IMG/VR virus record: IMGVR_UViG_3300037485_000225
Location: 1-64,000 of that record
Length of the DNA stretch: 64,000 nt
Origin: a virus
Direction: 5' to 3' (one strand)
Shown: in pieces, positions 37 to 45,700 of the stretch
How the letters are laid out: every line of letters starts with the position of its first letter
Numbering within the stretch: the first letter of the stretch is position 1
The notes under the pieces: generated by a model
What the model saw: only the letters and a program-made list of their open reading frames with translations
Told to the model about the DNA's origin: nothing
Database searches by the model: none
Translations under genes and position numbers: made by a program

Positions 37-435
37 TTAACTAATTGCAGCAAGCAATGTCTCATCAACAGCTTCAACAGGAGCACTCTTGAAGATAGCA
101 AGCAAGGTTGCTTCAGTTTGAGCCATTGCAATCTCTTGAGTAGCGTTAGTAGCAGAAAGAAGAGTGAAGTTCTTCACTTGAGAGTCTACCCCATTCTCAT
201 CTGTTTTGGTTCTCAATCCTTCTTCGAATGTCATACTATAAAGAATGCCATTAGTAATCCATTCGTTGATTGGGTCTTTAGAGTTGACAGTGAATGCAAC
301 ACCATCGTACTGATACAAAGCATAAGTAGTGCCAAAGAATTTGTGTCCTTTTGCAACAACATCAGCATTGTAAGGATTGCCTGTAGAGATAGTTCTTACA
401 TTAAGTACTTCTCTTCCTTTAATTTCTTTTTTCAT
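37..435 (-). CDS. hypothetical protein (132 aa), the only minus-strand gene, transcribed away from the rest of the window
   Basis: Clean 132-aa ORF of balanced composition. The overlapping plus-frame ORF 118-450 is Cys/Phe/Ser-rich and looks spurious. No recognisable motif. Confidence 0.5.
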   Translation of the reverse strand: MKKEIKGREVLNVRTISTGNPYNADVVAKGHKFFGTTYALYQYDGVAFTVNSKDPINEWITNGILYSMTFEEGLRTKTDENGVDSQVKNFTLLSATNATQEIAMAQTEATLLAIFKSAPVEAVDETLLAAIS

Positions 436-1545
436 CTTTTAAACATTTAATTGTGTTACGCATTGACATTTTAAGGGGGGCTACCCCCACTGCGTAATTT
501 GTGGAGGGGTGGCTGACTGGATGTACCCTCCCCTCCCCTATACATAATGAGTTCCCTAATTATAGGAAAAAAAATTTTGTAAATAGTTCCACAAAGAACA
601 TTGGACATAACCTCCTAAGGCTCAAACAGTTAGCTGTAAGAAGTGTTAAATGTTGCATGAAATTTTCCAAATTCTTCATGCACCCATTTTTATACCCACA
701 GTATAAATTGCACCCATAAATTAAACTTTGCCCCTATTTTTTGTAACAAATAACTATATAAATATGTTACAAGAGTGTCACACTTTTTCAAATATTTGTG
801 ACAGATTTATATATATATAGGTAACAAAGACTTCTGGGTTTGGCTGTGTTTCACTTTCTAGATTGTCCAGTTTTTAACACAATAAACTTGACATTTGTCA
901 AGGTATAGCTTTACCCTAGGGGATGTTTAGTCAAGCTATGGCTTTACATAATGTGTCTTATAAGGGACATGCTCAGCTTAACAATGTTGCTTTTATGACA
1001 CATTATGATATGTCTTTACATATAATGATGGAATAAGCTTACATATTATATGCGTTATAATATAGGGACCAATATTATAAACTCCTGTTGTATCAAAACT
1101 AGAAAATCCTGCAAGTTTTGATAATAGGCAAAAATAAATTTGGAACATATAAAGGAGATTGATATCTTTGGGGGGGAAAAAGGGGGGGCCCTTTGTAAAC
1201 CCATTCATTTAAAAACTCTTATATATATGATGACAACAATATTATTACTGTTAGTGCTATTAGTGATTATGGCCATAAGCGTAGGGATCTATATGTCTGA
1301 TGACATAGAAATGGGAATGGAGCTATCAACATTCAAATGGACAAGCTTTGAACTAGGTGTCACTAATAGAAACTATACATGGGATAGTGGGGAAGAGGAA
1401 CAGGAGCTTAGAGTAGGGTTATTTTTCATCACCTTCTTTATATCATTTTTTAGAAATAGTGCATAATATAGCATTCACCCATAGACATAATTAAATTAGT
1501 TATTTGTGGGTCAATAGATTATACATACCTTTGCTTTAATTATAT
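436..1545. promoter_or_regulatory. 1.1-kb noncoding strand-switch region carrying divergent promoters and G/C-rich structured elements
   Basis: No convincing ORF; the table ORFs 501-719, 993-1208 and 1140-1466 are low-complexity. GGGGGG-cta-CCCCC hairpin at 475-488. GGAGGGG (503-509) pairs with CCCCTCC (530-536). G7-A5-G7-CCC at 1170-1191. Bacteroidetes-type -33 TTTG (1503-1506) and -7 TACCTTTG (1526-1533) lie 19 nt apart just upstream of the ATG at 1546. TAAATTTG at 1135-1142. Confidence 0.45.
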
Positions 1546-3062: not shown

Positions 3063-3381
3063 AAAAGCACTTCTTATAGAATATGAGTTGGAGTTTCTAG
3101 AAATGAAACTTCAAGAACTAAAGGAATATATACAGTCTAACCCCTTTTCTTCTTTAGCTGATAGAATGGCTTGGAAGGAAACAAAAGGTGGAGGATCTAT
3201 TCCTATTTGTATTGCTAATAAAGAAGCACAAAGAAAAGACTTGACACAAGCACTTAAAGACTATGCTGAGATTTTACGTACAGTGGATGCTATGAGAGAG
3301 AAAGAAGAGTCTAAAATAGAGGTGAGAGGCAAGGGAGAACTAAGCAGTATGGCTGAAGACTTCCTTAAAAATAGAAAATGA
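3049..3381 (+). CDS. hypothetical protein; by position a candidate small terminase subunit
   Basis: 110-aa charged and coiled ORF immediately upstream of, and overlapping, the large terminase gene. Positional inference only. Confidence 0.35.
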   Translation: MATTKKALLIEYELEFLEMKLQELKEYIQSNPFSSLADRMAWKETKGGGSIPICIANKEAQRKDLTQALKDYAEILRTVDAMREKEESKIEVRGKGELSSMAEDFLKNRK

Positions 3382-5414
3382 ATCTACAGAGTATAGACTA
3401 TAAAGACTGGTTTATAAATCAGAAGCGTATTCCTGACAAAACTAGTGAGGAGTTTAAGGAGTTTTTTGACTTTCATAAAGAGTTATGTCTAAATGGTTGT
3501 ATGATGGGGGGTGTTTATATCAACCCCTTTTTATATTGGCACCTAAACATGTGGCATACAGAGGTGGATGTTATTGATGCAAATGGAAGAATCTCTCAGA
3601 AATATGCTAACCCATTTCTTAGAGATAATGAGTGGGTGATTACCAATGAGATAGATAGAGCTCAGAATGAAAAGAAAGGACTGCTAATACTTGGTATTAG
3701 ACGTTTGGCTAAGTCTGTTATAGAAGCATCCTATGTATCTTGGGGTGCTACATTTGATGAAAACTCACAGAATATTATTTCTGGACTGAATGCTCCAGAT
3801 ATAAAACTGATTACAGATAAGATTGATAAAGGTCTTAACTTCTTACCAGAAGCTTGGAGATGGCAGAGGATTGAAGATAATTGGAAGAATCAAGTGACAC
3901 TAGGAATTAAAACTAGATCAGGAGAAAGGATACCATTCTCTTCTATTCTTATTCGTAACCTTGATGAAGGTAATAATGAAGAGGCAATTGCAGGTACTAA
4001 ACCACGTAAATTAATTATAGATGAGATCGGTAAAGGAAATTTCCTTAGAGGCTTACAGGCTGCTATTCCAGGTTTCACTACACCCTATGGTTGGGGATGT
4101 AGCCCCATACTTACTGGGACTGGTGGTGACATGAAAAAATTCATGGATGCAAAATCCTTGATGTTTGATGTAGACAATTTCAATTTTCTTTCTTATAATA
4201 ATGAGAAGGATACATCTAGAATGCATGGGCTCTTCATTGGACACAAGTATAGAATGGAGGCTAAAGAAGACTCTACACTAGGAGCTTTTTTAAAAGAACC
4301 TCCAGCTTCAGAACTATACAATGTAAAAATGTTAGTCTCTAATGATGAGAAGGCTACAGAAATTACAGAAAATAATCTTAACAGACTTAAAAAAGCTGGA
4401 GATAGAATAGCATATTTAAAAGAGAAGATGTACTATCCACAGGAAGTGGATGATATATTCTTGAATGAGGATACAAACATCTTTGATATTGAATCTGCTA
4501 AGAGACAAAAGTCTAGATTGTTACAGCAAGAACGTACAGGTACACCTGTTGTATTATATGCTGAAGAAACTACAATAAAGCATGAGTTTACAGATAAGCT
4601 TCCCATATCTAACTTCCCTCTCAAGAATAGTGATATGAAGGATGCTCCTGTAGTTATATATGAGTTCCCTATAGAAAATCCTCCTTATGGATTGTATGTA
4701 GCAGGAGTCGATCCCTATAGACAAGGTAAGTCAGCTTATTCAAGTTCATTAGGATCTGTATACATATATAAGAGAATGCATGAAATTACAGGTGAGAAGT
4801 ATCAAGATATGTTCGTAGCTTCGTACTGTGCAAGACCTGATAAGAAAGAAACTTGGGAAGAACAAGCTCGTTTACTTATTAAGTATTACAATGCTAGAAC
4901 ACTGTGTGAGAATGATGACATATCCTTTATTGAATATATGAAAGCTAAAGGAGATGCTCACTATTTAGAGAAACAACCTCAATGGTTGATGGAGATTGTT
5001 CCTAACACAACAGTTAAAAGAGAATATGGAATTCATCGTTCAAGTGAGAAAATAATTAACTACCTTCACACTTCCTTAAAGAAGTATATGGAAGAAACAA
5101 TATACACTGAGAAGGATGCTGATGGTAAGGTGATAAGAGAAGTGCTAGGAGTTCATAAGATATTTGATCCTGTATTGTTAGAAGAGATTATCCAATACAA
5201 TGATCAGGGTAACTTTGATAGAATTGTAGCTGCAGAGTTAGCAATTGCTCAAGCACTTAAGATGGACCCTATTATGGGAAGAATAGGTGGAACAGGAGAT
5301 GAGAGAGTGGCATCTATGTTTGTTAAGAAGAAAGGTAATGTATTATTCACAGAATCAAGAGGAGGGATGTTTGGCAGATCTCCTAGAAAATATAAAAATA
5401 AATTGTTTTCATAA
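3378..5414 (+). CDS. terL: terminase large subunit (ATPase plus nuclease)
   Basis: T4-like deviant Walker A ILGIRRLAKS (compare SRQLGKT) and Walker B LIIDEIG. C-terminal nuclease motif VAGVDPYRQGKSAYSS matches the classical terminase (I/V)G(V/I)DP..G.D.SA motif. Sits just upstream of the portal candidate. Confidence 0.8.
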   Translation: MNLQSIDYKDWFINQKRIPDKTSEEFKEFFDFHKELCLNGCMMGGVYINPFLYWHLNMWHTEVDVIDANGRISQKYANPFLRDNEWVITNEIDRAQNEKKGLLILGIRRLAKSVIEASYVSWGATFDENSQNIISGLNAPDIKLITDKIDKGLNFLPEAWRWQRIEDNWKNQVTLGIKTRSGERIPFSSILIRNLDEGNNEEAIAGTKPRKLIIDEIGKGNFLRGLQAAIPGFTTPYGWGCSPILTGTGGDMKKFMDAKSLMFDVDNFNFLSYNNEKDTSRMHGLFIGHKYRMEAKEDSTLGAFLKEPPASELYNVKMLVSNDEKATEITENNLNRLKKAGDRIAYLKEKMYYPQEVDDIFLNEDTNIFDIESAKRQKSRLLQQERTGTPVVLYAEETTIKHEFTDKLPISNFPLKNSDMKDAPVVIYEFPIENPPYGLYVAGVDPYRQGKSAYSSSLGSVYIYKRMHEITGEKYQDMFVASYCARPDKKETWEEQARLLIKYYNARTLCENDDISFIEYMKAKGDAHYLEKQPQWLMEIVPNTTVKREYGIHRSSEKIINYLHTSLKKYMEETIYTEKDADGKVIREVLGVHKIFDPVLLEEIIQYNDQGNFDRIVAAELAIAQALKMDPIMGRIGGTGDERVASMFVKKKGNVLFTESRGGMFGRSPRKYKNKLFS

Positions 5415-7993
5415 TGGCAATTATAAGATATACAAAAGACGCAACAATTAGGTATGCCTATTTAAACATATTCCCTGATCAGTTTAAAACTGAGAAGGAG
5501 AAGATGGATGAGAGTTGGATTAAAAACACAATGGATTATTTCGCTAATAAGTCATACGCTGAATATATAAAGAATAGAGACACCTTTGTTAAGAACTATG
5601 ATTTAATGAAGGGGATTCTTAGAAGAGAGGATTTTTATCAAGAGCCTGAGGTGAGAAGTTTCACAGATGTATTAACATCTGATCTTGAACTTCCTGCTTA
5701 TGTAAAAATGTATTCTATTATAACAACTCCTGTTAATGAGTTAGTTGGAGAAATTTCTAAAAGACCAGATGCTTTTCGTGTAAAGGCATTTGATGATGAT
5801 AGTAAATCTGAAGAGCTTGAGTTTAAGACAGGTATATTACAAGAGTATGTAATAGGACAAGCTAGACAAAAGATTCAAGAGAAAGCTGCATTACAAGGAC
5901 AAGAGATTGAAGATGAAGAGTTACAACAAATGACAATGAATGAGGTGAAGGATCAAATAGATTCTTACACATCCACTGCAGAGAAATGGGCTAACCATGT
6001 CCTCACTTCTCAAAAGGCTGAGTTTACTCTTAAAGAAAAAAGTGAAGATGCTTTCAGAGATATGTTAATATCTGCTAGAGAGTTCTATCATATATACGAA
6101 GATAATTCAAAGGTTGGATTTAATGTAGAGGTAGCAAATCCTAAAACTACATGGTTCTTAACAACACCAGATAGAAAATATATTTCAGATCCTACAGGTA
6201 GAGCACAAGCTGCATATGCTGCTGGTACTGTACAGGTGATGGAGCTATCTGAAATTATTGAATCAGTTCCTGATTTAACTAAAGATGAAATAGATCACTT
6301 ACGTTCTTCATTACAAGACTATGGATTGATTAATGTACGTGAATCAAATCTTGGTAATCCTAATGCTACTCCTGGTAATGACTCTATTCAATATGATACA
6401 TATGATCCTCTTGTTCTACAAACTAGAATGATCATTGAATCTGAAATGAAAGAGAATAATGATGGTCTTAAAGATTTCTTAGGTCTTACATCTAATGTAA
6501 GTTCTTTTGGTTATAAGTATGTAGTGGTGAGAGCCTATTGGATTAGTAAAAGAAAGATAGGTAAGCTTATCTATTTAGATGAGATGGGTAGTGAACAATC
6601 TCTACTTGTAGATGAGAATTATAAGAGTGGAACTATTCCTACACAACAATCTTTAGAGTGGGGATGGATTAACCAATGGTACCAAGGTATCAAGATTGGT
6701 CCAGACATCTATCATATCAAACCTTATAAGTTACTACCTTACTGTCCTATCATTGGTCAGGTGTTTGAGGTGAAGAATACAGAAGCTAAAAGCTTAGTAG
6801 ACTTAATGAAACCTTTTCAGGTTTTGTATAACGTATGTATGAATCAGCTTTACAAACTTCTTGAGAAGGAAGTGGGTAAGGTGCAATTGATGTCTATTAG
6901 ACATATTCCTATTCCTAAAGATGGAGATGCACAAGATGCTCTTGATATATGGGAAATGGAAGCTCGTAATAGAGGGGTAGTATTTATTGATGATAGTCCA
7001 GAGAATTTAAAAGCTCCTTCTAGCTTCAATCAATTTACTAGTCTAGATCTTACACGTACACAGGAGATACAAGCTCGTTATACATTAGCTCAACAATTAA
7101 AGAATGAGTGTTGGGAATTAATAGGTATGTCTAAACAAAGACTTGGATCTGTATCAGCTAGTGAAAGTGCTACAGGAACCAATGCTGCTATTACACAAAG
7201 TTATTCTCAAACAGAACCTTTATTTGTTGCACATGAATATGTATTAGGTCAGCTTTACCAAGGTATAATTGATGCATCTCTATATGTAGAAAGTGCTAAA
7301 CCACAATCTACAATTTCCTACATTACATCTCAAGGAGAATCTGCTTTTGTACAGGTGAATGGTACAGATCTTAAGTTCAGAGACTTAAAGGTGTATTTAA
7401 CTAATAGACCAGAGGATCAAAAAATGTTCACTGAATTACGCAGTTTATCACAAGCTGTTATACAGAATGGTGGAAGCTTATCTGATATCATTGAATTATA
7501 TTCAACTGATTCTGTTCGTCAAATGAAGAAGGTGTTTACAACACTTAAGGAAAGACAACAGCAATTAGAAGATCAGAAGATGCAACAACAACAGCAACAA
7601 TTAGAGCAACAACAACAACAAGCTCAAGCTACAATTGCTGCAGCTCAACAAGCACAACAAGAAAAAATGGCTCATGATGATTATCAAAATGAGTTGGATA
7701 GAATTAATAAGAAAGAGATTGCATTAATTTCTGCTGAATCTAAAGGAGGATTACCAGATGTAGATAATTCTGGAGCTCCTGATGTATTGGAAATCAATAA
7801 GTTATCATTAGAGCAATCAAAAGCTAGTAGAGACTATCAAACAAAAATGGCTGACATTCAATCTAAAAATACATTAGCTGCTCAAAAGCTACAAGTGGAA
7901 AGAGAAAAACTAAAAGTATCTAGAGAGAATCAAGCAAACGATTTAGCTATAGCTAAAGAGAATGCTAAGGGTAGGAACAAGAAAACTAAATAA
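5414..7993 (+). CDS. portal protein candidate (859 aa) with Q-rich coiled-coil C-terminus
   Basis: Position immediately after terL with an overlapping start. Size fits large portals. The C-terminal poly-Q/coiled-coil (QQQQQLEQQQQQAQ) is seen directly. Confidence 0.5.
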   Translation: MAIIRYTKDATIRYAYLNIFPDQFKTEKEKMDESWIKNTMDYFANKSYAEYIKNRDTFVKNYDLMKGILRREDFYQEPEVRSFTDVLTSDLELPAYVKMYSIITTPVNELVGEISKRPDAFRVKAFDDDSKSEELEFKTGILQEYVIGQARQKIQEKAALQGQEIEDEELQQMTMNEVKDQIDSYTSTAEKWANHVLTSQKAEFTLKEKSEDAFRDMLISAREFYHIYEDNSKVGFNVEVANPKTTWFLTTPDRKYISDPTGRAQAAYAAGTVQVMELSEIIESVPDLTKDEIDHLRSSLQDYGLINVRESNLGNPNATPGNDSIQYDTYDPLVLQTRMIIESEMKENNDGLKDFLGLTSNVSSFGYKYVVVRAYWISKRKIGKLIYLDEMGSEQSLLVDENYKSGTIPTQQSLEWGWINQWYQGIKIGPDIYHIKPYKLLPYCPIIGQVFEVKNTEAKSLVDLMKPFQVLYNVCMNQLYKLLEKEVGKVQLMSIRHIPIPKDGDAQDALDIWEMEARNRGVVFIDDSPENLKAPSSFNQFTSLDLTRTQEIQARYTLAQQLKNECWELIGMSKQRLGSVSASESATGTNAAITQSYSQTEPLFVAHEYVLGQLYQGIIDASLYVESAKPQSTISYITSQGESAFVQVNGTDLKFRDLKVYLTNRPEDQKMFTELRSLSQAVIQNGGSLSDIIELYSTDSVRQMKKVFTTLKERQQQLEDQKMQQQQQQLEQQQQQAQATIAAAQQAQQEKMAHDDYQNELDRINKKEIALISAESKGGLPDVDNSGAPDVLEINKLSLEQSKASRDYQTKMADIQSKNTLAAQKLQVEREKLKVSRENQANDLAIAKENAKGRNKKTK

Positions 7994-9940: not shown

Positions 9941-11494
9941 ATGGCAATTCAAACAATTCCAGGTTTAACTGGTTTTACCTATGCTAGAGTCGCTTCTATG
10001 GATAAGCGTGCTGTAGGTAAATTAACAGATGCTAACCACTTGGAAAGCTTTCACTCTACAGAGCCAGCAGATTATGATAAAAAGATCATAAGCCTGTATA
10101 CCCAAAGCTCTCTTTACAGTAATGATTTCTTAGACATGATTAACAAGTCTACTCCTTACTATATCGATAATAACAGTGATGCTTGGAAGTGGCAGGTACA
10201 AGTTCCTTACAAATTTCCTAAAATCATTGACATCCCTGTAACAACTTTAGAGTTGGACAAACCAGGTATTGATGGTCAAGAGTTTCAATTGATTATTGAC
10301 ACAAACGAATTCTCTAAGAATGCAATCGTTTCTGTTGGTACTCGTCAATATGGACCTCGTTTCTACGTTGTGAAAGATCCTCAACCTTGGAACATGGGAT
10401 ATTTATACACATTTACATTAGTAACTGATAATCCAGTTGTAGACTTTGTAAGCCCTACCTTCTTAAGAATAGGTATTGAGCTTGAATTAGTTGATGCTGC
10501 TATTGGTGAATTTGACCAAGACTTATTAGGTCTTCCTCGTTTAGGTGAGCAAATTACAATGTTTGAATCTTTAGGTTCTGCATATGGTTATGAGCACAAG
10601 ATCACTGAGTGGGCTGATGATAAGATGATGAGAGATGCTTCTGGTAAGCCTTTAGATATTTTGGTTTATGCTCCTCAAAGACGTAACCAATTACCTTTAA
10701 CTCGTAATGATGTTAAATGGGAACCATTTATTGAGTTCTGGATGCGTAAGTCTATGTTAGAATTAAAAGTTAAGCGTATGATCTGGGCTAAACCAGGTAC
10801 CGTTAAAACTAATGGTTCTAAGCAAGAATTAAAAAGAACTTCTGCTGGTGTTTACCACAGAATGAGAAATAACGGTAACTTAGTTCAATACAACCGTGGA
10901 GAATTCACTGCAAACTTGATTCGTTCTGTGTTTGGTGATTTGTTCTACAGACGTGTGGATGTTAAGGATCGTAGAGTTAAAATGTACACTAATGAAGCTG
11001 GATTCGATGTATTCCAACAAGCTTTGAAGAATGACGCTTTAAATTCTGGTTTAACTTTCATGGCTGATTCTGGTAATCGTTACATGCAAGGAGAAGGACA
11101 ACATATCACTTACAACTTTGCATTTGATGCAATGGTTACTCGTGAGACTGGTCGTGTTGAACTTATTCACTTGAAAGAATTAGACTTACCTCAAACTAAC
11201 TTAGAATTTGGACAAAACAAGAAATCAACTCCAGTATTTATGGTGTTTGATGTATCTCCAATGTCTGATGGTTCTATGGTTAACAACATTCGTGAGGTTC
11301 GTATGAAAGGTGCTCCTTCTATGACTTGGGGTTATATCGATGGTACTCGTAGTCACTTAGGCTTTGCTAAGTCTCAAGGTATGAGTTCTGCGAACAAATT
11401 CCCTGGTTATGAGATCTGGATGAAAGATCGTTGTGATGTGTTTATTGAAGATTTGTCTCGTACAGTCTTGATTGAGGAAATACCACAATTCTAA
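9941..11494 (+). CDS. major capsid protein candidate (517 aa)
   Basis: Canonical position after the scaffold gene. A-rich leader. Followed by a cluster of stem-loops. No motif-level proof. Confidence 0.45.
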   Translation: MAIQTIPGLTGFTYARVASMDKRAVGKLTDANHLESFHSTEPADYDKKIISLYTQSSLYSNDFLDMINKSTPYYIDNNSDAWKWQVQVPYKFPKIIDIPVTTLELDKPGIDGQEFQLIIDTNEFSKNAIVSVGTRQYGPRFYVVKDPQPWNMGYLYTFTLVTDNPVVDFVSPTFLRIGIELELVDAAIGEFDQDLLGLPRLGEQITMFESLGSAYGYEHKITEWADDKMMRDASGKPLDILVYAPQRRNQLPLTRNDVKWEPFIEFWMRKSMLELKVKRMIWAKPGTVKTNGSKQELKRTSAGVYHRMRNNGNLVQYNRGEFTANLIRSVFGDLFYRRVDVKDRRVKMYTNEAGFDVFQQALKNDALNSGLTFMADSGNRYMQGEGQHITYNFAFDAMVTRETGRVELIHLKELDLPQTNLEFGQNKKSTPVFMVFDVSPMSDGSMVNNIREVRMKGAPSMTWGYIDGTRSHLGFAKSQGMSSANKFPGYEIWMKDRCDVFIEDLSRTVLIEEIPQF

Positions 11495-11510: not shown

Positions 11511-11638
11511 GTTAGAACTAATGTTCTAAACAGTTCGAGAAGAATTCCCCCCCACTCCTCAAAAGTGGGGGAGTCTTCTCACCAACCCCAGATGGATGAA
11601 TGAAATTAAAACTTTCATTGCATTCCTTTCAATAGGAA
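11511..11638 (+). terminator. cluster of four consecutive stem-loops downstream of the capsid candidate
   Basis: TTAGAAC-taat-GTTCTAA (11512-11529). CCCCCACT-cctcaaa-AGTGGGGG (11549-11571). AATGAAA-ttaaaac-TTTCATT (11599-11619). TTCCT-ttcaat-AGGAA (11623-11638). None has a strong U-tract. Confidence 0.4.
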
Positions 11639-16769: not shown

Positions 16770-19466
16770 ATGTCTTGTTTACCTGGAACTCCTTGTTACG
16801 ATGCCTATTATCATCCTAGTGAAAACTGTGGATGTGCTGAATGTCAAACTCTTTCAAGTAGAGTTACCTATGATGGACCCAATCTTCCATGTACAGGAGT
16901 ACATAATGGAGATAATTTAAATTGTGCCCTATCCAAAATAGATGATGCAATATGTTCTGGTTCTAGTGGTGGATCTGGTACATCTGGTACATCTGGTATT
17001 AACGGTTCTTCAGGAACCTCAGCTATATCAGGTACAAGTGGAACATCTGGTACTAATGGAACTAATGGAATTTCTGGAACAAGTGGAACATCTGGTACAT
17101 CTGGTATTAGTGGCAGTAATGGAACAACAGGTACTAGTGGAACTAGTGGTATAAACGGAACTAGTGGTACAAGAGGTACCTCTGGATCTTCTGGTACAAG
17201 TGCTATTAATGGAACAAGTGGAACTAGTGGTATAAATGGAACAAGTGGATCTAGTGGTAGTAGTGCAACAAGTGGTACTACAGGTACTAGCGGTACATCA
17301 GGTATTGATGGAACTAGTGGCATAGATGGAACTAGTGGCACAAGTGGTACTTCTGGAACTAGTGGAACTTCAGGTACAACAGGAACAAGTGGTACTTCAG
17401 GTACAACTGGTGTTGATGGAACTAGTGGAACTTCAGGTACAACAGGAACAAGTGGATCAAGTGGTACAACAGGAACAAGTGGATCAAGTGGTTCATCTAG
17501 TACTTCTGGAACAACTGGTACATCTGGTACTAGTGGTACAACTGGAACAAGTGGTACTTCAGGTACAACAGGTATAGATGGAACTAGTGGAACTAGTGGC
17601 TCTAGTGGGTCATCTAGTACAAGCGGTACTTCAGGAACTTCTGGTACAAGTGGAACATCTGCAAATGATGGCACCTCTGGAACATCAGGAACTAGTGGTA
17701 GCTCTGGAACTAGTGGCACATCTGCCACTTCAGGTACAACAGGTACAAGTGGTACTTCAGGTCTTACTGGAACATCTGGTTCTTCAGGATTAAACGGAGA
17801 TAGATATTATAGCATATCATCTACATCTATACTTATAGGAACTGGATCTAGAACATTAATTATTGGTACAGGATTAGCTTATAGTGTAGCACAAAGTGTT
17901 GTTATAGTTTATGACAGCCTTAATACAATGGAAGGAACTGTTACATCATATAATGCTCTATCAGGACACATGATTGTAAACATAGTTTCATTTACTGGTT
18001 CTGGTACACAATCATCTTGGGAAATAAATTTACTTGGAGCTTCTGGTGGTGATGGTACATCTGGCACTAGTGGAACAACAGGTACTTCTGGAACAACAGG
18101 AACCTCTGGTTCTTCTGGTACAACAGGAACATCAGGTAGTTCAGGTACAACAGGTACAAGTGGAACATCTGGAACTTCAGGTACAAGTGCTATTAATGGA
18201 ACAAGTGGTACATCTGGTACATCTGGTACAAATGGTACAGGTGGAACATCTGGTACTAGTGGTACAGTAGGTACAAGTGGTACAGCTGGTTCTAGTGGAA
18301 CAACAGGAACAAGTGGAACAACAGGTACTTCAGGTACAAGTGGAGCTAATGGAACTAGTGGCACAACAGGTACAAGCGGAACTAGTGGAACTAGTGGTAC
18401 AAGTGGTGTTAATGGTGGAACAGGTACAAGTGGAACTAGTGGTACAAGTGCTATTAATGGAACTAGTGGTACAAGTGCTATTAATGGAACCAGTGGAACC
18501 AGTGGAACCAGTGGAACCAGTGGAACCAGTGGAACCAGTGGAACTAGTGGTACAAGTGGTACAAGTGGTGTCAATGGTGGAACAGGTACAAGTGGAACTA
18601 GTGGTACAAGTGGTGTCAATGGTGGAACAGGTACAAGTGGAACCAGTGGAACTAGTGGTGTCAATGGTTCACCTGGTGGAAGTGGAACCAGTGGAACTAG
18701 TGGTACAAGTGGTGTCAATGGTGGAAGTGGAACTAGTGGAACTAGTGGAACTAGTGGTGTCAATGGTTCACCTGGTGGAAGTGGAACCAGTGGAACTAGT
18801 GGAACTAGTGGTGTCAATGGTGGAAGTGGAACCAGTGGAACTAGTGGTACAAGTGGTGTCAATGGTGGAAGTGGAACTAGTGGAACCAGTGGAACTAGTG
18901 GTGTCAATGGTTCACCTGGTGGAAGTGGAACCAGTGGAACTAGTGGTACAAGTGGTGTCAATGGTGGAAGTGGAACTAGTGGAACTAGTGGAACTAGTGG
19001 TGTCAATGGTTCACCTGGTGGAAGTGGAACTAGTGGAACTAGTGGAACTAGTGGTGTCAACGGTTCACCTGGTGGAAGTGGAACTAGTGGAACTAGTGGT
19101 ACTTCAGGTACATCTCCTTCAGCAGCAGCTTATGTTCCATACACAGGAGCTACAGGAAATGTTGATATAGGATCTACTCATTCAATGACTGCAGGTTCTT
19201 TTTATGAAAGTTCAGATATAAGATTTAAAAATGTAATTGAAACAAATCCATCTATAGATTTACCATTAGATGTAATTAAGTTTACAAGAACAGATGATGA
19301 TAGTAACGCAATTAGATATGGTTATTCTGCACAACAAGTACAATCAGTGCTTCCAGATGCAGTCTCAGGTGATGAAAAATTATCTGTAAATTATATGGAT
19401 GTGCATACATTAAAAATTGCAGCTCTAGAAAAACGTATTGCTGAACTTGAAGCTAAATTAAAATAA
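16770..19466 (+). CDS. collagen-like (Gly-X-Y) tail fibre with C-terminal S74-type intramolecular chaperone/autoprotease domain
   Basis: Hundreds of G-T-S/G-x-y triplets, interrupted once by an ~85-aa globular domain (17800-18055). The C-terminus carries [10 protein letters not shown] ... [15 protein letters not shown], matching the Peptidase_S74/CIMCD hallmark SD.RLK.NI ... G.IAQEVQ.VLPE.V of endosialidase-type tailspikes. Confidence 0.85.
18400..19100 (+). repeat. in-frame tandem repeat array (39-57-nt units encoding [13 protein letters not shown]-(G/S-P)-G-(T/G-S)) inside the fibre gene
   Basis: About 12 near-identical units (ggtgtcaatggtggaagtggaactagtggaactagtggaactagt and variants) seen directly. 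Length is a multiple of 3 and the array lies within the collagen frame. Confidence 0.75.
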
Positions 19467-37101: not shown

Positions 37102-39753
37102 ATGGCTTCATTTACAGATCAAATATCACAATTTAACCCCTACATTCAGCAACTCCCAGTTGATGCTATGGTTAAAGTGGGCATGCAAAAGCAGGCTCAG
37201 TATGACCAAGGTGTGCAAAAAATTCAGGGCTATATAGATAATATAGCTGGAATGGATGTTATGCGTGATGTGGATAAACAACATTTACAATCTAAACTTA
37301 ATGAATTAGGTGGTAGATTAAGAACTGTTGCTGCTGGAGATTTCTCTAATGCTCAATTAGTTAACTCAGTAGGGGGGATGGCTACTCAAATAGTTAAAGA
37401 TCCTTATGTACAAGCTGCTGTTCAATCAACAGCAAATGCTAGAAAGCAACTTAGTTTGGTAGACCAAGCTAGAGAAAAGGGAGAGTTAACTCCTGACAAT
37501 GAGTGGTTTTTTACGGAGAAACAACTTAATAAATACCTATCTAATCCTAGTCTTGCAGGAGAAAAGAATAGTCCTGTAGTGTTTAATGGTAAATACATTA
37601 AGCATTATGATGTAGATAAAGATATACAAGAAGCTATTGGAAAAGCCCATTTAAGTTCAGATGAATGGGAAGAGAATGCTCTTAATGCAGATGGTAGTGT
37701 GAATTCAGATATTCTTATAGAGAAAGCAAAGAAGGGATTGTTAAGTGGAAAGGTTAAAAGTATAGTTGAAAGTGTATTTTCAAAACCAGAGGTGCAACAA
37801 CAGTTAGCTATTACAGGTACCTATCAGTTTAAAGACTACACTCCTGAGATGTTAAAAGGTGTACAGGATGAAAGTATAAACTATATTAGAAATAAAGCAA
37901 AAGAGAACAGAGACAGAATTGCTTGTGTTGGAGTTATTTCTGATTATGAAGCAGCAAATGCAAATAAAGCAATAATTAATATTGATAATCAACTACAATC
38001 TTCAGAAGAACAGTATGCTAAATACATGAAGCTGTTAAATGAAGGAAAGATTGATGAAGCAAAGATATCTTTATATAGAGATAATAAAGAAGCACAATAT
38101 CAAACTGATTACTCTTGGGAAGAGAACTCTATGAAATCAAAGGTGAATCCTTGGTTTACTGTGCAGATGACAAGAGCTAATTATAACTTAGCTGTACAGA
38201 AAGAAATATTTGATGAAGGAGATGCTAATAGAAAGTTTAATGAAGGAGTAAGACAGTTTGGTTTAAGCTATGGTTTACAATTAGAAGATGCTCAAAGAAA
38301 AAGAGATATTGCTAATAATAAGTTAAATCCTGATGGCAGTTCTAAAGTTATATATACAAAAGATCCAATTAACCCTGAGGAAGTAGCTAAAATAGGATCT
38401 CAGTCTTATAAAGCTAATATTCAAGTTTTAAAAGATCAGGCAAATCAGCTTCAAGCTAAGGTGATATCTACTCTTCCAGGATTTGAAGATTTGTATAGGC
38501 AAGATGATAATGGTGTATATAAGTTTAACTATTCTAAATATAAAGACTGGAAAACAATTGAACCAAAATATAAAATGGCTTTAGTGGAGTTAGAGAAAGC
38601 TCACATGAATGGTACAGTGAAACCTAACTACAGACAAGATGTACAACAAATACATGATTTACAATCATTGGTTTCTCTAAAAACTCAAACAGAAAAAGAA
38701 ATAGATGATAGGTATAAACCACTAGTAGATAAAATAGCTAATCAAATATCAGATCCTAAACCTATATATGGTAAATCTACTATGCCTATAAGTAAAACAG
38801 ATATGGTTAATGTTTGGCTTGCTGAAAATAGTACAGATCCACAAACAGCTAAAACAGCTAGAGATTACATAAATACAAAATATGGTAAAGGAGGGGGAGC
38901 ATTTGGTGATAAAAAAGCAGATGCAGTAATATTTCTTTCTGGAATTTATAAAGATTCATTCAAACAAATAGATAAAGTAATGAGTGATAATCCTGGTTTA
39001 GCACCTATGTTTGCAAATAGAGAAAAGGATTATAAAAAAGTACAACAACAAAATGGAACTTGGTATGCTACTATTAATGAAGGAAAACCTGAAGGTAAAT
39101 TATTAGTAAACCAAAAGTATAGTGCTCTTTTAGCTAGAGTGATGGGAGGTGAAAAGACAGGAGGTGTCTATGGAAAAATGGCAAAGATGTTATCTGCTAA
39201 AGAACCTAGTGAGTTAAATGAAAACTTATATGGTTATTTTAGAGGGCAAGATGGTCAATTTTATGCACAAATTAGAAGAAACTTAGGATCTGGTGAAGGA
39301 TATGAATACTCTGAAATGTTACCAATTGCACCAGAAGAAGCTGCTGAATTAGGAGCAAAAACAGATCCACTTGAAGATGCTTTCAATTCAAAGTTTGGTG
39401 GATATTTAAATAACTTTCAAGGAAAACAAACTGCTAAAAATTTAATATCTCCAGAAGCAGAGAATGCAGCAATTAATAGAAGATCTGTAGGTCAATATTC
39501 TGTAGGTTTTCAATTAAAAGAATTGAATGGTGGATATGTTCCATATTTATATGTTAGAGATAGAAATGGAAATGTTCTATCTAGTGGAATGGAACTTGAT
39601 TTTTCAGTGTATTCAAAAGATCCAAGATTAACTCCTATACAAAGAGAACGTTTTAAAGACGTACAATCTATAATGAGTAAAGCAGATGTAGTTACTAAAC
39701 TACCTCTAATAGATGAGAATCTTATAACATTAATGTTAAATAACAATAGATAA
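37102..39753 (+). CDS. large coiled-coil virion protein (883 aa)
   Basis: Continuous ORF whose stop overlaps the start of the giant gene (ATAATGG). Confidence 0.5.
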   Translation: MASFTDQISQFNPYIQQLPVDAMVKVGMQKQAQYDQGVQKIQGYIDNIAGMDVMRDVDKQHLQSKLNELGGRLRTVAAGDFSNAQLVNSVGGMATQIVKDPYVQAAVQSTANARKQLSLVDQAREKGELTPDNEWFFTEKQLNKYLSNPSLAGEKNSPVVFNGKYIKHYDVDKDIQEAIGKAHLSSDEWEENALNADGSVNSDILIEKAKKGLLSGKVKSIVESVFSKPEVQQQLAITGTYQFKDYTPEMLKGVQDESINYIRNKAKENRDRIACVGVISDYEAANANKAIINIDNQLQSSEEQYAKYMKLLNEGKIDEAKISLYRDNKEAQYQTDYSWEENSMKSKVNPWFTVQMTRANYNLAVQKEIFDEGDANRKFNEGVRQFGLSYGLQLEDAQRKRDIANNKLNPDGSSKVIYTKDPINPEEVAKIGSQSYKANIQVLKDQANQLQAKVISTLPGFEDLYRQDDNGVYKFNYSKYKDWKTIEPKYKMALVELEKAHMNGTVKPNYRQDVQQIHDLQSLVSLKTQTEKEIDDRYKPLVDKIANQISDPKPIYGKSTMPISKTDMVNVWLAENSTDPQTAKTARDYINTKYGKGGGAFGDKKADAVIFLSGIYKDSFKQIDKVMSDNPGLAPMFANREKDYKKVQQQNGTWYATINEGKPEGKLLVNQKYSALLARVMGGEKTGGVYGKMAKMLSAKEPSELNENLYGYFRGQDGQFYAQIRRNLGSGEGYEYSEMLPIAPEEAAELGAKTDPLEDAFNSKFGGYLNNFQGKQTAKNLISPEAENAAINRRSVGQYSVGFQLKELNGGYVPYLYVRDRNGNVLSSGMELDFSVYSKDPRLTPIQRERFKDVQSIMSKADVVTKLPLIDENLITLMLNNNR

Positions 39754-42700
39754 TGGCTTTACCTACTAAAGAAACATTGCAGAACGCAGAGCGTGTAATA
39801 CCAGATGCTACTGAACGTACACTTGTAGAATATCCTTCAAATATACCAAAGTTTCAAATGAACTTAGAAACTGCAACTGGTGGAGGAAATCAACAAAGTG
39901 ATGCTTATAGTAGGGCATTGTTATTAGCTTCTCCTACAAAACCATCTAACTTAACTTCATCTAGTACATTTAGTTATAATCCTTTACAGATAGATACAAG
40001 TGGTAGATATGATAGATTTATATTAGGACAAGATAATGAAGACATTCAAGGTAAGTTACAGTCTGGTTGGGATCAAGCAGCAAATGGTCTTGTTAAAGGA
40101 TTAGGTATTGCAGGAACCACTTTCTTAGATGGTACTGTAGGATTGATAGCTGGATTAACTTCATCTATTGCTAATGGTTCTCTTAATAAATTTTATAATA
40201 ATGACTTTACAAACTATATGGATAGTTTGAATAAGTCTATGGAGAATAAACTTCCTAACTATTACACTGCATCTGAAAGAGATGCTAAGTGGTATGAGGC
40301 TGAAAACTTGTTTACTGCTAATTTCTTCTGGGATAAAATTATTAAGAATTTAGGATTCTCAGCAGGTGCTATTGGAGCAGGTGCTGTTACAGCAGGATTG
40401 TTATCAAAAGTTCCAGCATTGTTTGGTATATCTAAAGCTGGTAAGCTTGCACAAGTGGCAGATGCTTTAGAAGTTGGATTAAAAGGTGTTCCTGAAATAG
40501 AGCGTGCAGCAAAAGCTGCAGACATTATTGCACAAACATCTAAAACTATTAACACATTAAACAAGCTTTCATCAGTAGATAGAGCAGTTGTTGCTGGATT
40601 AAGTGCTGCTACAGAAGGTGGTATTGAAGCATTACAAGGATTAAATAGTTATAGAGATAAGTTAATTGCACAATATCAAGATACATATGGTGAATATCCT
40701 CCAGAGGATGTATTAAATAAAATTAATAATAGAGCAGAAGATCTAGGTAATGCTAGATTTGGTTTGAATGTATTGTTGCTATCAGCAACTAACTATATTC
40801 AACTTCCAAGAATATTAGGTTCTTCTTATCGTTCTGGTAAGAATACATTAATTAATTCTGCAAAAACCAATCTTGAGACAGGGTTATTAGAATCCTCTCT
40901 TCCTACAAAAGGTATTGGTAAAGCTTTATATAAAGCAAGGAATGTAGCTAGTTTATTCTTTTCTCCTACTGAAGGATTTGAAGAAGGAGCACAATATGCT
41001 ATTGAGAGAGGAACACAATCTTATTATAATAAAAAGAACTATGTTAAAGATGAATCTTTAGGTAGTTTTATAAATAGTTTTTCAGAGGCTGCTGGTGAGG
41101 GTATTAAAGCTGTAGGTGATAAAGAGGGTATGGAATCAATTTTAATTGGTGCTCTATCTGGAGGTATACAACAAGCAGGCTTTGTAGGAATGTACAAAAA
41201 TGAACAGGGTAATAATAGAGTTGGTATTGGTAAAGGTGGAGCAATAGGTGAAAGAGGATTTACAGGCTATGGTGGAGAGATGGCTAAAAACACAGAAGAT
41301 CTTATCAAACAATCAAAAAGATTCTCTCTTAAAGGAGATGAGTGGTTAAAAGATACAAAAGCTGGTGTTAAGAGAGGAGTTGTTTTACAAGAAGAATTTG
41401 ACCAACACGTAAGAATAGGAGATGTTCTTGAGGCTAAAGATACTGAATTTGATTATCAACATAACTACTTACTACCACGTATTAAATATGGTAGATATGA
41501 TCTTGTTAAAGATGATATAGATTATTATAAAGGATTAGCTTCTACACAAGAAGGATTTGATGAATTAAAGAAGAAAGGCATTGCTTCTGAGTTAGACACA
41601 CAACAAAGTTTTATAGATAGAATTGATAACTTTGCAGAACATGCTAAGGTGGTTAATTCATTGAATGAATCTTTGAATCTTAGATATGCAGGAGTTGTAT
41701 ATAAAGATACAAACAAAAGAGCTTATAGCGATGATGCTATTGAGCAAATGATATATGCTGCAGCAAAGATATCTGATTATGATAAGCGTGTACCACAGTT
41801 AACTGACAAGTTAGTTGCTGCTGGTATTGTTGTATCAAATGTACTTGATGATATTATTTCAGAAGGTCTTCCAAAAGAAGAAGTGGTAAAACAAGCTATC
41901 AATGATATTGATAAACTTGATGTGATAGAAGATGTTAAAGTTGAGTTAAAAGAAAACTTAAGAGATGCTGTAGAACTTTCTATAAGAAGAAAAGACTTCA
42001 TAGATGAGTATTCTAATATTAAGAAAAACCCTGCTAAGTACACTGAGGATAAAGGTGATAAACCTTTAAATACTAATGTACAAACTGTTAAGATTGTTAC
42101 CAAAACTGGTGAAAAGGATATTGTTGTAGGAGAAGAACTATTTTTAGGAAACACTGTCAAATACACTTCTAAGGGTGAAGAGGTTCGTGGGTTCCCTAGA
42201 TTAACTATTCTTGGAGAAAATGAAGATGGTAGTATTAAGATTAAAGACTCTAATGGTGATATTAGAGATATATCTAAAAGCGAGTTAGCTGATTATAAGT
42301 TAAGTAAGGTGAGTGATACATTAACTAATAAAACAGCTGCGTATTATTTAGCTCATGTTAATGATGTATTCCAATATAACTTTGGTCAAGCAAGTGAGGA
42401 TAAGAAAAGACCAGGTAGATTAGAATATGATAATGGTAAATTATTCTTTGTATATAAAAACTATAAAGGAGAAATTAAAAGAAAGCAAATTGATAACTCT
42501 CACTTTATAGCTCAAGAAGGATTTAGAGATGCTAGAATAAAGACAGTGGGTACACTCACTGCTGAATCTGCTGAGAAAAAAGCAGCTAGAGAAGCATTTA
42601 CATCTGCTGAAGAATTAAAGAAGCAACAACAAACCCTTGCTCAAAATAGAGATAATCGTTTAGAGATTATTACAGAATTATCTAATGAGCATATTGCTAA

Positions 42701-45700
42701 ATTAGAAGCTATTGAGAAAAAGCTAGAAGCTAAGAAAGAACAATTACAAAAAGTTACAGAAGATTTAGAAGAACTTAAGACATTAGAAAAGAGAGACTTA
42801 TCTGGTAACATTATAGTTCGTCCTTTTAACACTGTCCTTTCTAAAGCTATGAGAGGCATTAGTACATTGAATAATACTAAGGATGCTTTAGAAAAAGAGA
42901 TAGCTGAGTTAACTGCAGACAAGGATGAGTTAGAATTTAACATAGCTTATTTTGAAGACTTTAAACAAAACTTAGATGAGCTTCCAGAAAACTCTGGACA
43001 ATTCTTAGAAGAGTTGAAGTTTCAAATCCTTATTGCTGAAGAGTTACGTGATAAAACACAAGACAATATTAAGTCATTAGGTGGTATCATTCAAAAGATT
43101 GATAGTGCTATTAAAGACTTCACTCAATTATTAAAGGATGCCTTTGCTAAATTTGACCAAGACTATCCTAGTTATATCAAAGATGAATTTGAAAGAATCA
43201 TTAATGAAGGAAGTACCCTATCTGATCTACCTTCACTTAAACAGTTTATAGCTGATTATGTATTATTGAATGATACTAAAAAAGAGATATCGCTAAATAA
43301 AGAAAAGGTAAGTAAGTTAAGTGATGAGATTAATGATTTGTTTAAAGACTTTATTGAAGTACAAAAAGACTATGATGCTAAGAAACTTATATTAGATAAG
43401 TTCCAAGAGGTAGCTGATAAGTATAGACAAATGAAAGCTGAAGAGGATGTCTTGAAAAAGGATAAAGCTTTACAAAACGTTATTGATCAAAGTGCTGATA
43501 AAGGAATTCAAACTGTAGAACATAATAAGCCTTTTGAGGCTATGCCTAAGAAGTCAAATGAGAAGATACCAAATTCTACAGTGGCTCCTGTGCAAGGACT
43601 TTCTCAAGAGAGTGAATTAGCAGAACATCATGTTCGTGCTAATAAGTTTGGTGTTAATTTTTATGACCTTCCTGGACATGAGAACTTTCGTGGTGTAATT
43701 GTCACTTCTGAAAATGAATCTCAATTAGGACTAGGTGGTACTATGGTAGATGGTGAGTATGTTGGTGGATTAATGAATCATTTAAAAAATGCAGGAATTA
43801 ATCCTGAAGATGTTGATTCTAAAAGAACTATAGCTTTAGTTATGGTGAGTGTTGATCCTAACAATGGAGAGAAACATCTTATTGGAGTTGATGGACAAAG
43901 ATTAGAATCTCCTACAGTGGATAATGCAATCTATCAAGTATTCCCTGAGAATATAGATAGAATGTTCAGAGATGATGTAGATGATGATACTAAAAAGCAA
44001 ATCATTGATGATTATAGAAAATGGAGAAATGAAACAATAGCTAACCCAATTAATGATGCTCATGAAATAGAAGCATCTTTTGGAGTTCCTGACTATGTAC
44101 AAAGAGTCTTAGAGAATGGTGATAGTGAGAGAGACTATGAAGCAGATGGTGTTCCTGTATCAGATTCTGCATTACTTACAGAAGAAGATATTAGAACAAA
44201 GAGAGTGGTGGGAATACCTACAACTGATGGTGCTCAAACAAGAGGGTCTGTTACATTTAATAATGTAAAAGGTTTGCCTTTATTGTTTACATCTAATGGT
44301 ATGGTTAGATTAAGAAACAGACAAATCAATAATGAAGAAGCAACATTAATACATAAAGTTTTAGTTGAGCTATCTGATATATTATATGACCCTAAATATA
44401 AGAATTGGCAGTCTCCTAAAGCTCAAGCTTTACTTAACTGGTTAAAATCAGTTTCATATTGGGGTACACCTAAAGATGCAGAAGGTAATAGAAAGCCTGC
44501 AGGATATAATAGCATGTTTGTTGAAAACATGGAATTAATTATGTCTGAAGATGAAACTATTAGATTTGCATTCACTCCTTCAAATATTAGAGATAATAAA
44601 GATGCAATTATTGCAGAGATAGAGAAGCTATATGGTAATGTAAACTCTACAATGGTTACAGGTGGTAAGTCTGGAGAATGGAATAAACCATATGTACAGA
44701 TTACTAATATTGCTGAAGATGGATCTATTGAAACAAAGACTTGGAAAAACTACCAATCGTTCTTGTTATCTAAAGTTGATCCTGATGGAAAACCTAGAAT
44801 TGCTAAAGAGATTCCTTTAACAACTCAAATTAGACCTGTAAAAGATGCTAATGATGTTAATAGAAAAGGTGTATACTTTACAGTTACAGATAGGAATAAT
44901 GCTGATACAGAAGCTGTTGAGGTGAGTCCTACAGCTGCTACAGTTACACAAACCACTCCTTATGGTACAGAAGCTGGTCCTACATTAACCACTTCTACAG
45001 AGTCTGTAGATAAGAAAGCTGATATAGAAAGAAGAAGACAAGAAGAGTTAGATAAATATAACTCAGGAGATATTACAGTAGCTGGAGTTAAAGCTATTAA
45101 TGATAAATATAATGCAGAACTAGCTGCTTTAGAAAGTGGTAAAACTGCAGCTCCTGTAGCTACACAAACTACACCTACAACTAGTTATGTATTTGATAAT
45201 AAAACACAAAATGTTGTTACATTTCCTAATCTAGGACCTGTATCTTTCATATTAGATTTAAACAAATATAATAGTAGTGAACGTAAAGAAGGTATTGCTA
45301 TGGCTGTTCCTGACACAACTTTAGAAAACATGGTTGTTAAGTTGGTGAACAATAGTGCACAAAGTGGTATCACTCAAGATAGTCCTGAAGAACAACAAAA
45401 TGCTCTTGCTGAAAATGTATTGAGAGCTCTTGTTAAAAAAGAAATTGATAAACAATTAAATGCACAGGTGGTAGCTCCTACAGTAGTACTTCCTGTTACA
45501 GTAGAACAAGAAAGACAAGCTGCTGAAATAAGTGTTATTGATTCTAGTTTACAACAAAAGATTAATCAAGTTGCTGCTCAAGGTGATACAGCTATGAGTA
45601 GTCAATATAGAATTAAGTTAGTTGAAACATTTAAGAAGTTTCAGAAAGAAGACTGGTCTAAAGTGGAAACTTGGTTAAAAGCTAATTTTCCTAATATACC

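Follow-up and report, generated by a model that had tools for sequence, protein, structure and literature searches.

At the mitochondrial LSP–CSB II element (G6AG8), at oriF and oriG of T4 and in ColE1 (RNA II), G runs stabilise an RNA–DNA hybrid or a hybrid G-quadruplex (G4) and create a replication primer. The G4 motif at pilE in Neisseria reads G3TG3TTG3TG4, and the early promoters of phage N4 are hairpins read by a virion RNA polymerase, which in N4 is a T7-like enzyme. In Neisseria gonorrhoeae, the promoter of a small RNA (sRNA) adjoins the 16–19-nt pilE motif, transcription starts within the motif and the G4 was concluded to form only during that transcription (PMC3547852). For the crAss-like phage phi14:2, a preprint mapped four middle promoters by primer extension, that of g110 included, from which a sigma-70-type holoenzyme transcribes. 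It also reported that gp66 transcribes only single-stranded or denatured DNA in vitro, and found no common motif upstream of virion-RNA-polymerase transcripts (10.1101/2020.03.07.982082, Drobysheva et al.). In this work, we describe the G/C-rich elements of a divergent gene junction (436–1226) in a 64-kb stretch of viral DNA, positions 1–64,000 of the IMG/VR record IMGVR_UViG_3300037485_000225. This whole stretch is what we call the window, all coordinates refer to it, and its sequence identifies it as the structural arm of a freshwater crAss-like phage.

Although crAss-like phages rank with the most abundant viruses known, their control sequences are almost unmapped; two testable cis elements can now be defined. 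Their conservation among relatives marks the G/C-rich elements of the junction as putative cis-regulatory parts of a divergent early/late control region. The explanation that we favour overall, with somewhat better than even confidence, combines a G array fused to the first promoter of the rightward arm (P1), where a G4 or an R-loop would form co-transcriptionally, with a module of a hairpin and a G box that would serve early control.

Promoter P1 and its G-tract array

All long open reading frames (ORFs) from 1227 to the end of the window lie on the plus strand, and the sole minus-strand gene occupies 37–435. The strand switch at 436–1226 is thus the only one in the window, as an earlier reading made from the letters of the DNA alone (the sequence-only reading) had stated. 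The same reading gave the noncoding region as 1.1 kb, a figure that is approached only if a small ORF on the plus strand (1227–1466; 79 amino acids (aa), with a hydrophobic N-terminus) is discounted; the true gene-free stretch, 436–1226, measures 790 nt. The 79-aa ORF lies between P1 and a second promoter, P2. It is kept in the closest relative, L090, and is absent in several others, where P2 stands directly after P1. We read the gene-free stretch as a divergent control region, with small genes of no assigned function forming the leftward arm and the structural (middle/late) genes the rightward arm.

The G/C-rich elements lie where the sequence-only reading had placed them. The hairpin-capable element H1 is composed of G6 (475–480), CTA (481–483) and C5 (484–488); the G box GGAGGGG (503–509) is followed by CCCCTCC (530–536) within the polypyrimidine tract CCCTCCCCTCCCC (526–538); and G7 (1170–1176), A5 (1177–1181), G7 (1182–1188) and CCC (1189–1191) adjoin one another. 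They are also as conspicuous in AT-rich DNA as that reading had claimed: the G+C content of the window is roughly 0.30–0.37 outside the islands formed by collagen-repeat genes, and the 730 nt from 470 to 1200 contain 4 of the window's 17 G or C runs of at least 5 nt and two of its three runs of at least 7 nt. G7-A5-G7 is the only (G3+N1–7)x4 motif in the 64 kb when both strands are scanned.

Isolate phages gave no nucleotide match to the window, near or distant. At the level of the terminase protein, Leptolyngbya phage Lbo-JY46 comes closest among isolates (40% identity), with Cellulophaga and gut crAss-like phages next. The search of IMG/VR yielded 480 confirmed terminase matches, from which 80 loci were taken (L001–L080, 83–93% amino-acid identity). 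These relatives are environmental metagenome contigs of up to ~118 kb, and all three elements are kept in related contigs, so that the comparison for conservation proposed with the sequence-only reading came out in its favour.

P1 (1131–1170, plus strand), recognised by pattern match and by invariant alignment columns, consists of a AAAATAAATTTGG block, a −33 box TTTG (1139–1142), a 20-nt spacer and a −7 box TATCTTTG (1163–1170). The layout reads AAAATAAATTTGG-N19-TATCTTTG-GGGGGG-AAAAA-GGGGGGG-CCC, in which the first G of the tract is also the last base of the −7 box. The primary-sigma promoter consensus of Bacteroidota (Bacteroides, Flavobacterium) is TTTG at −33 and TAnnTTTG at −7. P1 matches both boxes and the 20-nt spacing exactly and lies upstream of co-oriented genes; it differs by an invariant A-rich block ahead of the −33 box and by the G array behind the −7 box. 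P1 was found in all relatives, with the −7 box variants TAacTTTG, TAccTTTG and GAacTTTG, and across an alignment of 17 relatives, in which coding DNA is only ~70% identical, neither the AAAATAAATTTGG block nor the two G tracts vary in any of the 17. The sequence-only reading had suggested promoters at this location, and this is upheld: a conserved Bacteroidota-type promoter ends exactly where the G7 tract starts, and we regard the location as a functional control hub.

By our reading of the phi14:2 sequence, TTTGG-N20-TATCTTTG stands directly upstream of g110 at the equivalent junction. This promoter, P110, shares with P1 its sequence and its place, each being the promoter that opens the structural/expression arm where this diverges from the early arm. 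Its −7 box, in contrast, is followed by tagtATG and no G array, and P110 has been mapped whereas P1 is known from sequence. crAss001 (TTTGG-N19-TATCTTTG) and Lbo-JY46 carry the same promoter in the same place. Sequence and homology argue for P1 as a conserved Bacteroidota-type promoter for the host RNA polymerase, of the kind that serves as a middle promoter in crAss-like phages.

P2 (1503–1533, plus strand; TTTG-N19-TACCTTTG), recognised by pattern match and conservation, lies 12 nt ahead of the ATG (1546) of a 118-aa gene and is conserved without a G array. A sigma-70-type scan returned fewer matches than in shuffles. The Lbo-JY46 homologue of P1 (PP438436; L188, ~880–930) is a textbook Bacteroidota-type promoter at the divergent junction, TTTTGG-N19-TATCTTTG, though the host of this phage is reported as a cyanobacterium; either promoters of this type are not confined to one kind of host, or the assigned host should be re-examined.

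The G-tract array (1170–1191, plus strand; G7-A5-G7 followed by CCC) lies on the non-template strand of the P1 transcript. To describe its variation we extracted, for every locus fetched, the stretch ahead of the 118-aa gene, which gave 73 unique 32-mers behind the −7 box of P1, and all 73 are G-rich on the plus strand. Twenty of them (class I) consist of G7, an A/T spacer of 5 or 7 nt and a second G7, with ATTTA as the spacer in 12, ATAAA in 4, and AAAAA, AATAA, AATAAAA and AATACAA in one each. The remaining arrays are interrupted (for example, TTTGaGGGTGGAGGGTGGGG, GGGGTAGGTTGGGTGGGG, GGGGAGTGTGGGTGGGGAAGG and GGGGGTGGGTGGGG) and include the types GGGG-T-GG-A-GGG-T-GGGG, GGGGAGTGTGGGTGGGG and GGGTGGAGGGTGGGG, with the general form GGGG-N-GG-N-GGG-T-GGGG. 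The exact motif of class II, one of the interrupted kinds, occurs in 21 IMG/VR contigs, in one copy per contig and invariably in the context of P1.

Read as GGG-G-GGG-AAAAA-GGG-G-GGG, the array of the window has four runs of at least three G separated by loops of 1, 5 and 1 nt, within the 1–7 nt that define a G-quadruplex motif. The sequence-only reading had raised the possibility that the G7 tracts form a G4, and prediction agrees: with the quadruplex model of ViennaRNA and RNA parameters, a G4 is part of the minimum-energy fold in 55 of the 73 arrays, compared to 2 of 2000 random 32-mers from the same loci and none of six P2 sequences. For the array of the window the predicted G4 reaches −16.7 kcal/mol, and the competing hairpin −7.7 kcal/mol, on the same RNA parameters. 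A further candidate, a stabilising hairpin at the 5′ end of the transcript formed by spacer, GGG and CCC, seemed compensatory between the window (AAAGGG/CCCTTT) and L026 (TTAGGG/CCCTAA) and was rejected as a general explanation, being absent in many relatives.

Among homologues the G tracts are retained while the loops drift in sequence and length, so the array is conserved as a pattern rather than as a sequence, and in this comparative sense the G4 suggestion is supported. Free loops between kept G tracts indicate that structure is constrained rather than particular bases, for example through a quadruplex or a strand prone to R-loops. With the array fused to the −7 box, the geometry of the promoter suggests that transcription from P1 starts inside or just past the first G7, which would put the Gs in the non-template strand. 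Opening or transcription of P1 would then free the G-rich non-template strand to fold as a quadruplex; alternatively, the G-rich RNA would hold an R-loop on the C-rich template. In either form the array would act in cis and co-transcriptionally, and would tune or exploit the firing of the structural arm's first promoter.

Several observations weigh against this explanation. The pattern TTTG-N18–22-TAnnTTTG is not enriched across the window (4 found, 2.87 expected), and the case for P1 is therefore built on conservation and on homology to P110. crAss001, phi14:2 and Lbo-JY46 have a P1-type promoter with no G array downstream, which makes the array an add-on of the present clade and no requirement of the promoter. 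Eighteen of the 73 arrays have only three G3 runs and one G2 and form no G4 in the model, and the energies themselves were obtained with parameters for RNA. The start site of P1 is placed from general promoter geometry and the sequence. Finally, the exact 7/7 lengths of the tracts would be explained equally well by a protein that reads G runs.

Because these lengths are so exact, a base-specific protein site is a serious rival. Under it, the array and the other G boxes would be duplex binding sites for a phage or host protein (an early-to-late regulator or an HU/IHF-assisted complex), and a quadruplex would play no part. Each tract measures exactly 7 nt, the repeat is 12 nt (sometimes 14 nt), the surroundings are full of the conserved palindromes and direct repeats typical of operators, and a family search places an HU-like gene 700 nt downstream. 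However, very different primary sequences occupy the same position (G7-W5-G7, GGGTGGAGGGTGGGG and GGGGAGTGTGGGTGGGG) and only the G-tract pattern is kept among them, and no candidate binding protein was identified. On balance we consider the protein-site explanation unlikely.

A different role for the tracts, proposed in the sequence-only reading, is that of slipped-strand phase-variation switches. Homopolymers of 7 nt are of a length at which slippage is appreciable, and contig breaks at the junction (discussed below) could stem from length heterogeneity. Yet both tracts measure 7 nt in all but one of the 20 unique class I variants (19 with 7/7, the other with 7/8), although spacers and flanks differ, a comparison made on assemblies, which hide heterogeneity within a sample. 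The tracts also lie behind the −7 box, neither inside an ORF nor between promoter boxes, and the interrupted arrays of many relatives cannot slip. On the evidence of these assemblies we reject phase variation, which is scarcely credible here.

Paired G runs were also seen elsewhere. At the divergent junction of the distant crAss-like phage cr131_1 (Suoliviridae; L254, 6508–6690), CCCCCtatagtCCCCC presents G5-N6-G5 on the strand of the leftward gene, ~50 nt from the start of that gene; crAss-like phages may more widely carry paired G runs at this place, in variable orientation. The unrelated contigs L083, L111 and L127/L142 have G7-ATWWA-G7 in intergenic DNA. In bacterial genomes, G7-ATTAA-G7 occurs inside a multi-copy palindromic element, C7-N5-C7-TTT-G7-ATTAA-G7, of Chloroflexota metagenome-assembled genomes (MAGs; L235, L236, L237, L241, L244, L248 and L251), with at least 4 copies with shared flanks in one Caldilineaceae MAG, and in tandem units of ~129 nt in a Bacteroidales MAG (L234/L242). 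Two short AT-rich contigs have G7-ATAAA-G7: L247, binned as Aquiluna sp., also carries P1 and is a mis-binned fragment of the present phage clade, and L250, binned as Rhodothermales (G+C content 0.31), is probably phage. Neither is evidence for a host, and host inference from the scan of bacterial genomes was abandoned, its matches being mis-binned phage contigs or unrelated repeat elements.

The hairpin and G-box module ahead of the leftward arm

The first gene of the leftward arm (37–435, minus strand, 132 aa) has no family match in PHROG or Pfam. By position it corresponds to the gene that heads the early operon in crAss001 and phi14:2; in the relative L028, the left arm consists of small genes without family matches plus a ParB-like gene. 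Ahead of this gene lies block A (472–553, given as the plus strand), which comprises H1 (475–488), a linker, the G box (503–509, 14 nt past H1), the pyrimidine tract (526–538; GGGGAGGGGAGGG on the minus strand) and ATACATAA. A hidden Markov model of 472–553 gave 92 nhmmer matches, one copy per locus, that reduce to 59 unique sequences. All of these keep the arrangement of a run of 4–6 G, a loop and a run of 4–5 C (H1), a linker ending in ..CAA.., a G box of GGAGGGG or GGGGG and, 20–25 nt beyond the G box, a pyrimidine tract of 7–16 nt.

Parts of the module extend to very distant phages. Outward from the start codon of gp1, crAss001 shows an AT-rich leader, GGGGGtaggaCCCC, ACTGgctaagtgat, GGGGGAGGTGGGG, A tracts and TTTGG-N19-TATCTTTG; from g111, phi14:2 shows GGGGatactCCCC, AATTccaaaaaagagt and GGGGG, and later the promoter upstream of g110. 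The spacing from H1 to the G box and the G run itself are common to the window, crAss001 (GGGGGAGGTGGGG) and phi14:2 (GGGGG), and the polypyrimidine tract is clade-specific and absent from crAss001. The composite pattern G≥4-N3–11-C≥4-N10–20-G≥4 occurs once in the 64-kb window, once in 14.7 kb of crAss001 and once in 9.9 kb of phi14:2. All three copies precede the first early-arm gene by a short distance and share one orientation with respect to it. Neither 40 kb of cr131_1 nor 24 kb of Lbo-JY46 contains the pattern. Between block A and the gene, in the AT-rich leader, TTTAATTGTG (446–455) is conserved in our alignment of relatives (A1) although the downstream gene differs between them, and the similar ttaaattgttaat or ttaattaattg is found in crAss001 and phi14:2.

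Strand-specific RNA sequencing of crAss001 places an early operon (gp96–gp104 and neighbours, minus strand) at the equivalent junction, and its authors attribute the transcription to the virion RNA polymerase. The early promoter would thus fall, by position, within the 150–360 nt that contain the H1/G-box module. Given the conservation of the module to crAss001 and phi14:2 and its site upstream of the first early-arm gene, H1 and the GGAGGGG box are most likely part of the control or promoter region of the early operon. Reading of the block A sequences revealed no conserved canonical leftward sigma-A promoter beside the block, and H1 and H2 (the G box paired with the polypyrimidine tract) were not called in a scan for intrinsic terminators, both lying upstream of the genes on either side.

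What block A does not provide is a case for selected base pairing. The sequence-only reading described the two hairpins correctly, in that H1 and H2 fold as described (−5.8 and −8.0 kcal/mol as DNA), but their stability is unexceptional, with modest z-scores of −1.5 and −2.2 against dinucleotide shuffles; it is therefore conservation, and not folding energy, that makes the case for them. RNAalifold on the 59 block A sequences found 4 pairs and no compensatory change. Folds of native sequences were no better than those of chimeras that join a 5′ half to another 3′ half, for H2 (−12.97 compared to −12.99 kcal/mol, p=0.7) or for H1 (−10.2 compared to −9.6 kcal/mol, p=0.11), duplex tests of the flanks gave p=0.3 and p=0.15, and there is no strand preference, plus and minus strands folding equally well. 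These results count against our explanation as far as pairing is concerned, and we dropped the covariation that many outer stems, compensatory to the eye, had suggested. As G runs face C runs, pairing potential is universal in block A, and we treat the pairing as potential only.

Contig breaks, genome ends and replication

Many relatives end near the junction. Of the 80 loci, 41 stop within 8 kb upstream of the terminase gene, compared to 5 downstream, and 18 contig ends fall within the ~1.3 kb that hold the junction, in a zone equivalent to about 1–1600 of the window. L020 retains only the last G of the first G7, opening with gATTTA and then the second G7; L031, L037 and L050 start 6–45 nt ahead of the array, which in L037 and L050 is an interrupted class II array; L063 starts just past a G10; and L007, L016 and L022 start in block A.

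The sequence-only reading had named a packaging or terminal element among the roles that such a position could have, and the G/C-rich elements could indeed mark where the genome physically ends, where it is packaged (a pac/cos site) or where a direct terminal repeat has its boundary. This would account for the pile-up of contig ends, several of them in or near G tracts, and for the site upstream of the terminase operon, and there is a precedent in crAss001, which is packaged with a 576-bp terminal repeat (PMC6235969). The ends, however, lie at different nucleotides and in different G-rich elements, and about a dozen contigs of 102–118 kb cross the region intact. A contig of 113,936 nt (L020/L199, 113.9 kb) reaches with its far end to 48 nt before the array and closes the circle except for ~55 nt over P1 and the first G7; since it does so with no terminal overlap, a terminal repeat at the junction is not supported. 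We regard genome ends here as very unlikely.

Coverage is known to be lost at G-rich DNA that is prone to form quadruplexes, and contig ends at differing nucleotides fit a failure of sequencing or assembly at G-rich DNA at least as well as they fit real ends. We read the junction as a spot that is fragile in sequencing and assembly, owing to its G-rich DNA and the variable early region, and this hot spot of contig breaks matters when metagenomic genomes of crAss-like phages are called 'complete' or 'linear'.

A replication origin, a further role suggested by the position, would take a specific form here, primed by transcription from P1 and resembling T4 oriF/oriG, ColE1 RNA II or the mitochondrial LSP–CSB II. 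The G-rich transcript would persist in an R-loop while the displaced strand folds into a G4, and DNA synthesis would be primed rightward from this R-loop. The site has the only strand switch and the minimum of the cumulative GC skew, and it combines a promoter, non-template G clusters and an AT-rich stretch with iteron-like repeats upstream. An unrelated phage contig of 60% G+C content (L109, 1697–1718; L162, 979–1000) also joins G7-ATAAA-G7 to an AT-rich stretch and the palindromic iterons CTAGTGATGCCGACGTCACTAG; seen by itself, this arrangement in L109/L162 (G+C content ~0.60) is origin- or partition-like. The inflection in GC skew that had been proposed as a check does exist, with the cumulative minimum at ~1 kb, but it coincides with the switch in gene orientation, is fully confounded by it and so cannot discriminate an origin. 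In addition, related phages with the same promoter have no array, and no replication initiator gene is adjacent. We regard an R-loop-primed origin as distinctly unlikely.

Neighbouring features and known systems

Between block A and P1, positions 568–1123 form a mosaic of strongly conserved palindromes and direct repeats that are shuffled as modules between relatives and look like operators or iterons. An A8T4 tract followed by the operator-like palindrome GTTCC-N4-GAAC (568–600) is kept in both subgroups of alignment A1. The repeat scan and the same alignment define an inverted repeat TGCATGAA-N13-TTCATGCA (654–682), which is 94–97% identical in relatives with coding DNA ~70% identical, and two further inverted repeats, TTGTAACA..TGTTACAA and GTGTCACA..TGTGACA (741–803), in a region of which 775–813 is ~95% identical in relatives. 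Two iteron-like direct repeats on the plus strand, (T)GTCAAG-NTA-NGCTTTAC, lie 33 nt apart (894–947) and are conserved in 2–3 copies in relatives (GTCAAGCTATAGCTTTAC). Just upstream of P1, the sequence and the alignment show an inverted repeat TATCAAAACT-N12-AAGTTTTGATA, also written TATCAAAACT/AGTTTTGATA (1091–1123). Heavy transcription of long intergenic regions has been reported for phi14:2.

To the right, PHROG and Pfam searches match plus-strand ORFs to crAss-type families, namely terminase (3378–5414), portal (5414–7993) and the Crassvirus major capsid protein (Crass_capsid, 9941–11494). About 40 nt past the capsid gene lies a long G+C-rich hairpin (11537–11580; GAGAAGA..CCCCCCCACT..AGTGGGGGAG..TCTTCTC) that folds as DNA at −13.3 kcal/mol (z −3.9) without a T run and is terminator-like, as expected behind a highly expressed gene. 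Three genes at 16770–19466, 58064–61921 and 61948–63660 form the GC-rich islands (G+C content 0.40–0.47); they contain collagen triple-helix repeats (Pfam Collagen, E values of 1e-33 to 1e-102) and presumably encode fibre proteins. One ORF of 4387 aa spans 39753–52916, with ORFs of 1659 and 1285 aa behind it. Pfam matches the 4387-aa product at one place only, residues 4196–4287 close to the C-terminus, as a circularly permuted YpsA/SLOG domain, and this product is probably the counterpart of the fused giant virion proteins of crAss-like phages. Rfam (E≤1) and tRNA scans of the window returned no match.

Set beside the described systems, the early-control module recalls the hairpin promoters of N4, in which a short G:C stem with a loop of 3–5 nt precedes the first early genes and the phage brings its own RNA polymerase into the cell. 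H1, also a short G:C stem, is comparable in position, by homology. The polymerase of crAss-like phages, in contrast, is a two-barrel enzyme unrelated to that of N4, so that the likeness is one of idea, and across relatives H1 has a stem of 4–6 G:C pairs and a loop of 3–11 nt, compared to the fixed 3-nt loop of the N4 type. H1 and the G box (475–509) could, by this analogy, be a structured promoter of the N4 kind that the virion RNA polymerase of crAss-like phages recognises, a reading that we hold as doubtful. The module matters in any case as a hairpin and G box conserved across very distant crAss-like phages at the place where early transcription must begin.

P1 and its array join a known promoter type base-to-base with a quadruplex-prone array, in 73 unique sequences from a large environmental clade. 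Like P1, the mitochondrial LSP–CSB II element, T4 oriF and oriG, and ColE1 have a promoter followed by paired non-template G runs; in mitochondrial DNA, however, these lie ~100 nt downstream of the promoter, whereas in the present phage they abut it directly. The pilE G4 with its sRNA promoter is the closest precedent that we found for a composite of promoter and G4. There, too, the promoter immediately adjoins the G4 motif, and the motif closely resembles the class II arrays (GGGGTGGTTGGGTGGG); it differs in that the bacterial G4 triggers programmed recombination, whereas the present array heads the structural operon of a phage and its transcription start is placed by promoter geometry. We regard the composite as resembling the pilE-type and the primer-type groups and do not file it as a member of either. 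By analogy with pilE, the array fused to P1 could be a transcription-triggered quadruplex or R-loop switch, and the composite offers a natural system for the role of a G4 at a bacterial transcription start.

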